Shown here: positions 1 to 3,000 of the stretch, in pieces
How positions within the stretch are numbered: position 1 is the first letter of the stretch
How the letters are laid out: each line of letters opens with the position of its first letter
From: an uncultured bacterium
GTDB lineage: Bacteria > Hinthialibacterota > Hinthialibacteria > Hinthialibacterales > Hinthialibacteraceae
Direction of reading: 5' to 3'
Assembly: GCA_964449065.1 (NCBI GenBank)
Contig: CAYVAZ010000004.1
Location: 1 to 44,620, forward strand
DNA length: 44,620 nt
Position numbers: made by a program

Positions 1-3000
1 GGAGGGCGAGGCTCCCGCCGAGCCAGGTTTAGGAGGGCGAGGCTCCCGCCGAGCCAGGTTTAGGAGGGCGAGGCTCCCGCCGAGCCGGAAGTTCAGTACA
101 TCCTAAAAACAGAGATTAGAGCAATTCAAGGTTGGATTGACAGAAAATTAGTATTGCACTTGCCGTAGGGGCACATTGCAATGTGCCCTTACACAACGTC
201 TACGCAAACCTGAAATGCTCTAGTGATTAGAGTACCTTATCAATATCCTTTGCCGATCTACTGCTTTTTTTAAGTTCCTATATCAGAACGTATTTTTTCA
301 AGCCCAAGAATGCCGTTGTCTCCCCCAAAAGGTTCGGGGGAGATGTCCGACGCCAGGAGGACAGAGGGGGTGGCGATGAGAGAACTAAAATCCTTGCATT
401 GATAATTCTGTTTAATAGAAGGCAATCCTCACTGTCGCGGCACATAATCATACATATTCAACTCCGGAAAATTCTTCTCAAAGATCGCTTGGATGTACGG
501 GTGCATTTCCGATTGAAGCATTAAATACTCATCCCGTGACATATCGATAATTCGTCTATTCCCCTCCCTTACCATCGGACGCACAACTTGAATTCTCATA
601 CGCGGATTCGCGTACCGAATATCCCCTTTTCTAATTTGATCTGCTGAAAGGCCCAAATATTGCAAGTTTGGCGAATTGGAAACATCAATCGTTCGAACGG
701 GATTCCCGCTCAATTCTAAAGATTGCAAATTAATATTTTGCGAGAGATCAATTGACTCAATATTGTTGTATGCAAGCGTCAATATTTCTAAGTTTTCACA
801 CATAGAGATATCAATTTCTTCCAATTGGTTAAAATCCAAATGTAATTGCTGTAACCTATTTTCTTCCGGCAGTTTTATTTCTTTAAGTTGATTCATCATT
901 CCATCTATAAAACTCAAAACTGAATTGCTATTGAAATCAATTGATGTCACTTGGTTAAAACTAAAATCAATCGTATGGAGTAATGGATTCCCGGATAAAT
1001 CTATGTGTTGTAATATTGGCTGTTGATTAGGTTGCTGTGAGCCTCTTATCCCTACACTAACTAATTTTGGATGATTAGAAAATTCGATGGATTCAGAAGG
1101 GTAATTGTGGAAACTGAATTCCTCCAATTGGTCCAAATGCGAAAAATCAAGATTCTTGAAAGAGTTATTAAAAATTTTCAACTCAACGATATTCGGAGTT
1201 TTGGATACATCCAGAGTTTCAAACATCTCACCGATTACAACGAGTTCCTTTAATTTCGGTAAAGCAGGCAGTTCAATCGCAACCGGCGTTTCCGTTGGCG
1301 ACTCACTTCTGATTACGATTTCTTTTATGGATTTCAGATGCTGCAATCCCTCAACGTTATGGCTGTTTCGAATTTCCAGCCGCCCTCCTTTTTCTTCCAA
1401 CTCCTTGCGGGTAAACGGCTCAAACGTCCCCACGCCCATCAACCGCTCCACTGACGCGCGCATGTAGTCATCGGGAAACACGTCCGGCGTGTTCATGTTC
1501 TGCGATGCCAAAAACTTCGGCACCATCACCCACAACAGCAAAAAGATTACCGCCGCCGCAATGCCAATCTCAATCAGCAAAAACCTGTGTGACTTCATAA
1601 CGAATTCCTTACACGAAGATTGATCGATTCATTCGGGTTTAAATCCGGGAAGTTTTTTGTAAATTCTTCCATTAATTTTTCTACAATTTCTTGGCTTGAA
1701 AGAACATGATAGGGCGGCGTAACTGTGATAAGCATGTTTGTATTGGAGTATCGAAGAGTTAGATTTATCACTTGCGATTCGTAAATCGATAAGAGTTCCA
1801 TATCCGGTTGGTTTCTTAAATCGAAGGAATCAATGGGGCATTTGTAACACAACAACCGCTTTAGTTTCGGATTGTTAGATACATCCAAAGTATGAATATC
1901 ATTATGAACAATATCCAAACTTTCTAAATTCGTACAAGCCGAGACATCAAGATGAGTCAATTTGTTCGCCCCCACATCCAAATCAATCAAGTTTTTGTTC
2001 CGGCTTAAATCCAATTCATGCAATTGATTGATTCCCGCTTTGAGTTCAACCAATTCCGGATTGTTTCGAATATCCAATTCTTTGATTTGATTCACGCGGA
2101 CATTCAGTTTTTTCAATTTTGGATTCTTAGAAAGATTTACTTCCTCCAATACTGCATTCTTGTTTGTAGGATGACTATGACTTAAATCGGCTTCTTCCAA
2201 TTCAGGATGATGGGACAAATCAATAGATCGGTATGGATATCCTCTCAGCCTTAATTTTTTCAGTTTGGATAAGCGGCTAAGATCAATCGAGGATAGCGTG
2301 CAATGATAGGTTTCGAGAGATTCAAGATTCGAAACCTTTGTAACATCCAACGTTCGATACATTCTCCCAATAATGGTGAGTTTCTTTAAATTCGGCAACG
2401 CCGGCAGTTTGATATGAACAGGCGTTTCGGTAGGGGACTCGCTGTGTATCACCAGTGAATCGATTTGCCTGAGATGTTGCAGTCCCTCAATATTATGGCT
2501 GTTTGAAATATACAGTTCACCACGTTTTTGTGCCAACTCAGACCGCCGTATCGGTTCAAACGTCCCCACGCCCATCAACCGTTCCACCGACGCGCGCATG
2601 TAGTCATCGGGAAACACGTCCGGCGTGTTCATATTCTGCGATGCCAAAAACTTCGGCACCATCACCCACAACAGCAAAAAGATTACCGCTGCCGCAATGC
2701 CGAGTTCGATCAACAATACCCTGCGTGATTTCATCATCCCCCTCCTATAAACGTGGGCGCGCTGTTATGCCCCGCTCTGCCAAGAACGCTCATATTTTTT
2801 ACAACGGCTTAAATAAGGGCACATTGCAATGTGCCCCTACGGCAATATTCCCCCCAGGCAATGTGCCCCTACACAATATAACGGATGAGGTATTTCGTTA
2901 GTTAGATATTTTTTTCCGAAAAGAAAAATAACACGGTAAGTCTAAGGAAATAAGGCTACTTCAGGGATTGCAATTTTTGATATTTCTGACGGAAGGATGG

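Follow-up and report, generated by a model that had tools for sequence, protein, structure and literature searches.

REP systems and the repeat of the window

The closest described relatives of the repeat studied here are the REP and BIME elements of E. coli and their transposase TnpA-REP (RayT/YafM; PDB 4ER8; subclass 2.2 in the main text of PMC6006769), an HUH enzyme with a YxxxNP motif. REP elements are small DNA hairpins, presumably copied by a domesticated transposase. The E. coli elements are intergenic, form inverted doublets and carry a 5' tetranucleotide, GTAG, on a stem with two central mismatches; as described in the main text of PMC8266576, TnpA-REP recognises the folded single strand by its tag and the irregularity of the stem, and its cleavage sites are chosen by tag positions 3-4 (CT) or 2 and 4. 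The Group 3, or subclass 2.5, REPtrons of Pseudomonas, Stenotrophomonas and Marinomonas have short hairpins that are perfect palindromes with a GT[AG]G tag, and their genomes contain several gene copies that diverge from one another and have a hairpin variant apiece. The ends of IS200/IS605 elements (IS608, ISDra2) combine a guide tetranucleotide with a hairpin and an enzyme of related fold, and the Planctomycetes-rich class 3 of TnpA-Y1 enzymes has a YxxxxQ motif and a CnGA foot. As the family GTAG-20 is given in PMC3733652 for O. terrae among the Verrucomicrobia as well as R. baltica among the Planctomycetes, which is sharing at the level of the family, cross-phylum REP families are not unheard of.

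The window, by which we mean the whole 44,620-nucleotide stretch of DNA that was analysed, holds six copies of a 24-nucleotide sequence (the 24-mer) that is very probably the REP of one lineage of RAYT/TnpA-REP enzymes, with the enzyme moving the hairpin and its gene since lost, or left unassembled, where it is absent. The copies are as follows.

1-24, forward strand: REP copy 1 at the contig start, exact, with the GGAG tag at 1-4 and the hairpin at 5-24
32-55, forward strand: REP copy 2 of the tandem run, 31-nt period, exact
63-86, forward strand: REP copy 3, exact, followed by the common 3' tail of this genome
9503-9526, reverse strand: REP singlet with 1 mismatch, flanked by two convergent ORFs, 8613-9269(+) and 9820-10803(-)
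39553-39576, forward strand: exact REP singlet within an intergenic mosaic, with a GTAG-tagged hairpin upstream of it at about 39485
43474-43497, forward strand: REP singlet with 2 mismatches, intergenic, between inverted AT-rich arms

The 31-nt tandem run at the contig start is present as the survey had reported it, and 100 shuffles of the window gave no match to the 24-mer. The singlet at 9503-9526 overlaps a competing short ORF call at 9131-9541(-). Throughout the genome to which the window belongs (G000), the repeat is real, with 127 exact copies against none of the reversed pattern. At up to one, two, three, four and five mismatches the copies number 177, 198, 220, 236 and 250, while the reversed pattern yields 0, 0, 0, 0, 0 and 2 at 0 to 5 mismatches; the count at up to four mismatches is 236 and not the 251 claimed. 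Runs of N aside, the 24-mer supplies the most frequent 20-mer of G000.

The claim of intergenic placement was borne out by a crude set of ORF calls (at least 120 aa, 81% coverage), in which 14 of 236 copies lie inside ORFs compared with 3984 of 5000 random places. With the 81 copies that lack a called ORF on one side left unclassed, convergent gaps are enriched among the classed intergenic copies (40 of 141, versus 130 of 758 random places), and where the gap separates tandem genes, GGAG lies on the sense strand in 59 of 83 cases. A contig end lies within 150 nt of 45 of the 236 copies, and REP copies probably account for some of the assembly breaks.

The hairpin and its enzyme clade

As a single strand, the 24-mer has an unpaired 5' GGAG followed by three pairs, a tandem G·A/A·G mismatch, three further pairs and a 4-nt loop, TCCY. 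Positions 10-12 and 17-19 covary, occurring as GGC/GCC, ACC/GGT, AGC/GCT, GCC/GGC, GTG/CAC, GTC/GAC, ATC/GAT, CGC/GCG and GTT/AAC. Inner-stem copies with double changes are still Watson-Crick paired in 36 of 37, 47 of 47 and 9 of 9 cases, although these are not counts of independent events because the loci overlap and the copies are related. The structure given by covariation is also the predicted minimum free energy fold under both DNA and RNA parameters (ViennaRNA), its lead being narrow (-4.7 against -4.4 and -4.0 kcal/mol with DNA parameters). This architecture, a tag on an irregular stem, is that of a REP, and the earlier reading that the 24-mer was something other than a REP was mistaken, since an unpaired GGAG on a covarying irregular stem constitutes a REP-type hairpin.

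The unit differs from the E. coli REP in being shorter (24 nt) and in carrying GGAG in place of GTAG. Because the tag is GGAG and not GT[AG]G, with variable bases before it, the 24-mer was not filed under the canonical REP families: the two bases 5' of GGAG vary among copies, whereas in Pseudomonas the letters GGAG come from GT[AG]G plus a GA spacer. Inverted doublets of at most 130 nt with the tags pointing outwards (the REPIN/BIME form) contain 110 of 212 foreign copies, which qualifies the statement that the flanks of copies abroad share nothing; in G000 only 6 of 253 copies are in inverted doublets, the rest being singlets or members of tandem runs. A pseudoknot between tag and loop was considered and rejected, as loops of related hairpins vary (TCCY, TTCT, GCCG, GCTG and others) while the GGAG tag is constant. 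A search of Rfam with window positions 1-400 returned no family at its gathering score, the best matches reaching 15 versus 56 and 14 versus 45 bits.

A search for Y1_Tnp genes in five motif-bearing relatives gave 30 loci, at two of which, L158 (G003) and L141 (G013), the motif or its variants bracket the Y1 gene. The protein at L158 (P0001, 154 aa) contains H69-I-H71 and Y125xxxNP and scores 86.9 bits against NF047646, the NCBIfam model of REP-associated tyrosine transposases (cut-off 80), but 18 bits against the IS200 family model (cut-off 55). It matches E. coli TnpA-REP (4ER8) in sequence at E=5.6e-12, and 4ER8 is also the top Foldseek match of its predicted structure (pLDDT 88.7; TM 0.69). 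Among 388 candidates, 378 are relatives of this protein; NF047646 is matched by 35 of 35 alignment members, and YxxxNP is found in 116 of 121 homologous proteins. Judged by these sequence features, namely HUH, YxxxNP and the RAYT family model, the clade enzymes are classed as class 2 TnpA-Y1 proteins. For specialists, this is a large addition to the family, with a GGAG tag common to its hairpins.

The clade shares some features with the described enzymes and differs from them in others. Its tag-contact segment retains the W-Q and terminal R residues of E. coli TnpA-REP but has D in place of E100 (113 of 117), mostly R or T in place of H101 and mostly H in place of the preceding F (91 of 117); a D where E. 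coli has E100 is also described for subclasses 2.5 and 2.7. The clade also occurs outside the Gammaproteobacteria, unlike the E. coli system. With Group 3 it shares short hairpins and several divergent genes per genome, each with its own variant, although its hairpins are not perfect palindromes. It is set apart from IS200/IS605 by the low score against that model, by the divergence of gene copies within a genome (72% identical) and by hairpins dispersed in their hundreds without the gene, and from class 3 by YxxxNP and the GGAG foot. We therefore regard the 24-mer and the clade as a REP/RAYT system in the broad sense (a REPtron) that lies outside the GT[AG]G families.

Several observations concern the clade genes themselves. 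G003 has four, on its contigs C4, C1 and C8, three of them 72-73% identical to P0001, and the two retrieved carry different stem variants. The translated motif occurs in 21 of 121 called homologues, mostly in N-terminal extensions, so REP copies explain spurious protein extensions in gene calls. In four proteins (that of L189, and P0020, P0072 and P0120) the REP stands in frame at the same site, in a loop just after the HUH motif and before the Tyr; in-frame REP insertions in tnpA-REP genes are called unique to subclass 2.4 in the main text of PMC6006769, and the REP type of the clade differs from that of subclass 2.4. A sister RAYT group in Planctomycetota (L283-L286), about 35% identical to the clade, is flanked by GTAG-tagged hairpins instead and offers a natural outgroup for the switch of tag.

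In order to link hairpin and enzyme, 151 loci (80 from metagenomes, the others from genome searches) were scored with a profile of alignment A1; 10 had no profile match and 14 duplicates were removed. Taking loci scoring at least 100 bits as clade loci, and searching with a finder for GGAG-GG hairpins of 23-24 nt, GGAG hairpins were detected no further than 400 nt away at 82 of 84 clade loci. Weaker Y1 loci had them in 2 of 43 cases, G000's own gene fragment being one of these, and shuffles in about 2%. As the finder was designed after the first flanks had been seen, it was then applied out of sample to 25 further loci, all from G035's phylum, of which 21 were positive (shuffles, 13 of 500), the four misses being the four lowest-scoring loci. 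None of these 25 loci has a near-exact 24-mer. Hairpins with a GGAG tag are thus common to the whole clade, and the 24-mer reported earlier belongs to a larger set: the clade hairpins comprise 112 distinct 24-mers with the tag and a fixed length in common and with differing stems.

Of 81 tree rows, 13 have the exact 24-mer. A single group of 24 rows holds 12 of these (SH-aLRT 95 in a quick tree), but a careful 44-row tree did not recover that group; the 13 enzymes are mutually 31-63% identical (median 52.5). Copies that adjoin a clade gene and are exact or have one mismatch were found in four phyla: the phylum of G000 itself (G003), Planctomycetota (G040, G111, G142), Acidobacteria (G044) and Ignavibacteria (G036). 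Two features are unusual, the GGAG tag and a REP that is identical letter for letter beside enzymes only 31-63% identical; that such a REP recurs in several phyla is relevant to the question whether REPIN-RAYT systems are inherited mainly vertically. The motif and peptide words had no match in the main texts of the literature searched, nor had the motif words in the text of Table S1 of PMC6006769 or of four supplements of PMC3733652.

By analogy with the TnpA-REP enzymes of E. coli and Marinomonas, the enzyme would bind the folded single strand through the tag and irregular stem and would nick nearby, at a site predicted from tag positions 3-4 to lie between C and T, or perhaps between C and C from positions 2 and 4; the hairpin would then be moved or amplified by strand transfer. 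Letter identity across phyla would arise because enzyme and hairpin travel together, with the recognised tag, mismatches and loop under constraint, and genomes with copies and no gene would be those in which the gene has been lost or left unassembled. On the same analogy, we infer that conservation across phyla reflects co-inheritance of enzyme and site under constraint rather than docking at a universal site. A repeat that looked universal and mysterious would in this way become a defined REP-RAYT pair, and the clade a natural set of cases in which to compare what TnpA-REP reads in the tag with what it reads in the stem, and to test the guide rule by which cleavage sites are chosen.

Distribution across phyla

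Patchiness within the phylum of G000 is as the survey described, with the motif in 14 of 35 genomes and copy numbers across the 35 ranging from 0 to 258, and in Planctomycetota (the phylum of G040) it was found in 9 of 201 genomes, G040 included. Its occurrence in many phyla likewise stands: exact copies are present at 125 or more loci of GTDB genomes under 14 phylum labels, the NCBI labels of the 125 loci listed being Planctomycetota for 96, 13 other phyla for 25 and none for 4. A widened pattern gave 39, 51, 25, 80 and 2 copies in five foreign genomes (control, 0). Identity across phyla and the character of an intergenic micro-element that looks mobile are accordingly upheld, while the claim to be the first short repeat so shared is weakened by GTAG-20 (PMC3733652).

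A clade gene was detected in only three of ten foreign genomes reached through motif matches, the other seven being without one. In the phylum of G000, four of 14 motif-bearing genomes have the gene versus one of 21 without the motif (Fisher p=0.13), and neither G006 (258 copies) nor G023 (86 copies) yielded it. In Planctomycetota, where at most 18 candidates were scored per genome, a strong clade gene is present in three of eight motif genomes versus none of 192 others (p=4e-5), one of the three carriers, G053, being flanked by other GGAG hairpins. REPs without their gene are noted in the main text of PMC6006769, and the assemblies concerned are fragmented, yet the shortfall of genes is real.

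The horizontal spread that had been proposed fits the patchiness and draws no support for transfer from trees or AU tests. The enzyme tree is star-like, with few resolved branches and scattered phylum labels, and monophyly was not rejected for the Planctomycetota rows (p=0.57) or the rows of the phylum of G000 (p=0.78). None of 17 IMG/VR viral-contig loci with the motif (L287-L303) had a clade gene; two of these loci, on one contig, hold the motif as inverted doublets. Plasmids of PLSDB yielded no clade gene, only distant RAYTs (25-31%), and no full motif; an ordinary GTAG REP, tried as a control on sharing across phyla, had no match in plasmids, which leaves this control uninformative. Upstream (5') of the foreign copies, the signal for a cut between C and T gave no clear peak.

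A bolder reading, which we consider unlikely, is that one RAYT lineage crossed many phyla with a single frozen 24-nt REP while its enzymes diverged to about 50% identity, and that the REP keeps expanding where the enzyme is dead, as singlet hubs that swap flanking modules. If true, this would call for a second copying route, or for a conserved host factor that reads the tag and the tandem G·A stem, and such a crossing would contrast with the mostly vertical systems described for Proteobacteria.

Gene remnants, repeat mosaics and rival explanations

The G000 assembly contains no intact clade gene, but it does contain remnants. At C414:3697-4043 a motif pair is followed by about 60 codons of a clade gene, broken by another repeat at the contig end; on C71 the same motif pair precedes a clade gene with an internal deletion; and C292 ends in a third copy, similarly deleted. 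With the assembly at 87% completeness and split into 515 contigs, and with two of the remnants at contig ends, an intact gene may be unassembled. Three other Y1 genes of G000 were considered as the cognate enzyme and rejected, two being GTAG-flanked and none having the motif within 400 nt.

The G000 copies are embedded in mosaics with other repeats, including the GTAG hairpins that flank other RAYTs. The left and right arms of these mosaics are nearly always accompanied by the motif (22 of 24, 20 of 21 and 33 of 34) and combine freely with each other. A 95-bp module of about 20 copies (C20:23211, C69:17486, C390:4131 and others) consists of inverted arms around one REP. Both of its ends fall at CT, in 15 of 24 and 14 of 21 copies (against a background of 4%), and CC stands at the left end in 5 of 24; this is suggestive of RAYT nick sites, although a MITE reading fits as well because both ends are part of CTAG. 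A search for excision alleles in two contig-level runs of one study revealed no clean empty site, the joints being driven by repeats, and in the same runs reads piled up at the repeat (depth 184 and 254 versus about 4).

These mosaics raise the possibility that most copies in G000 and G006 now multiply as passengers of inverted-arm MITE-like modules, or through other RAYTs, and that the cognate RAYT only seeded them. The lack of an intact clade gene in the G000 assembly, the scarcity of doublets, the fidelity of the arms to the motif, the 95-bp module with inverted arms ending near CTAG and the presence of other RAYTs with GTAG hairpins of their own all speak for such passengers. The free combination of arms, in contrast, is better explained by shuffling at the hairpin than by fixed MITEs, and as the 4-nt ends are direct in some cases and inverted in others, they do not amount to a clean target duplication; on balance we hold this explanation possible but doubtful. 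It leaves the origin of the 24-mer with its cognate RAYT, as does the linkage of GGAG hairpins to clade loci together with the remnants in G000, and the view of a self-contained element without an enzyme is wrong.

That the 24-mer is instead a conserved host docking site or RNA element, such as an mRNA 3' stabiliser or protein-binding site, spreading independently of a transposase, would account for the many motif-bearing assemblies without a clade gene, for the bias of GGAG towards the sense strand in tandem gene gaps and for the same hairpin being the RNA minimum free energy fold. Secondary host roles are known for REPs in general, and the 24-mer may have one. The linkage is specific to one enzyme clade, however, and the sequence follows the enzyme, since over 100 further GGAG hairpins that share this geometry accompany sister enzymes; moreover, 21 of 35 genomes in one phylum and 192 of 201 in another did not yield the motif, which is incompatible with a universal site, and no Rfam family came near its gathering score for window positions 1-400. 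As an origin of the 24-mer, a docking site is thus largely refuted and very unlikely, and with a specific RAYT at hand the site once proposed for an unnamed protein or RNA is not needed. Least probable of all, to the point of being barely credible, is that the occurrence across phyla is an artefact of mis-binned or mislabelled MAG contigs. The foreign records are nearly all MAGs, the matches listed are dominated by Planctomycetota, several phyla have only one or two loci among them and G039 has just two copies; against this, G035, G037 and G038 hold 25-80 copies over many contigs, and G036 has 51, with copies and gene together on a 1.76-Mb contig.

G000 is unusually rich in repeats beyond the 24-mer, with about 20 other abundant families (36-76 matches per 20-mer) in intergenic mosaics and at least two other RAYT-like genes. 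One such repeat in the window is a GTAG-tagged, 28-nt near-perfect palindrome at 165-192 and about 2814-2840, whose core 20-mer has 66 matches in G000; it is probably the REP of the Y1 gene at L003, because copies lie downstream of and inside that gene. Also in the window, the adjacent ORFs at 429-1598(-) and 1595-2737(-), of 389 and 380 aa, are near-identical over their first 190 or so bases and diverged in the remainder.
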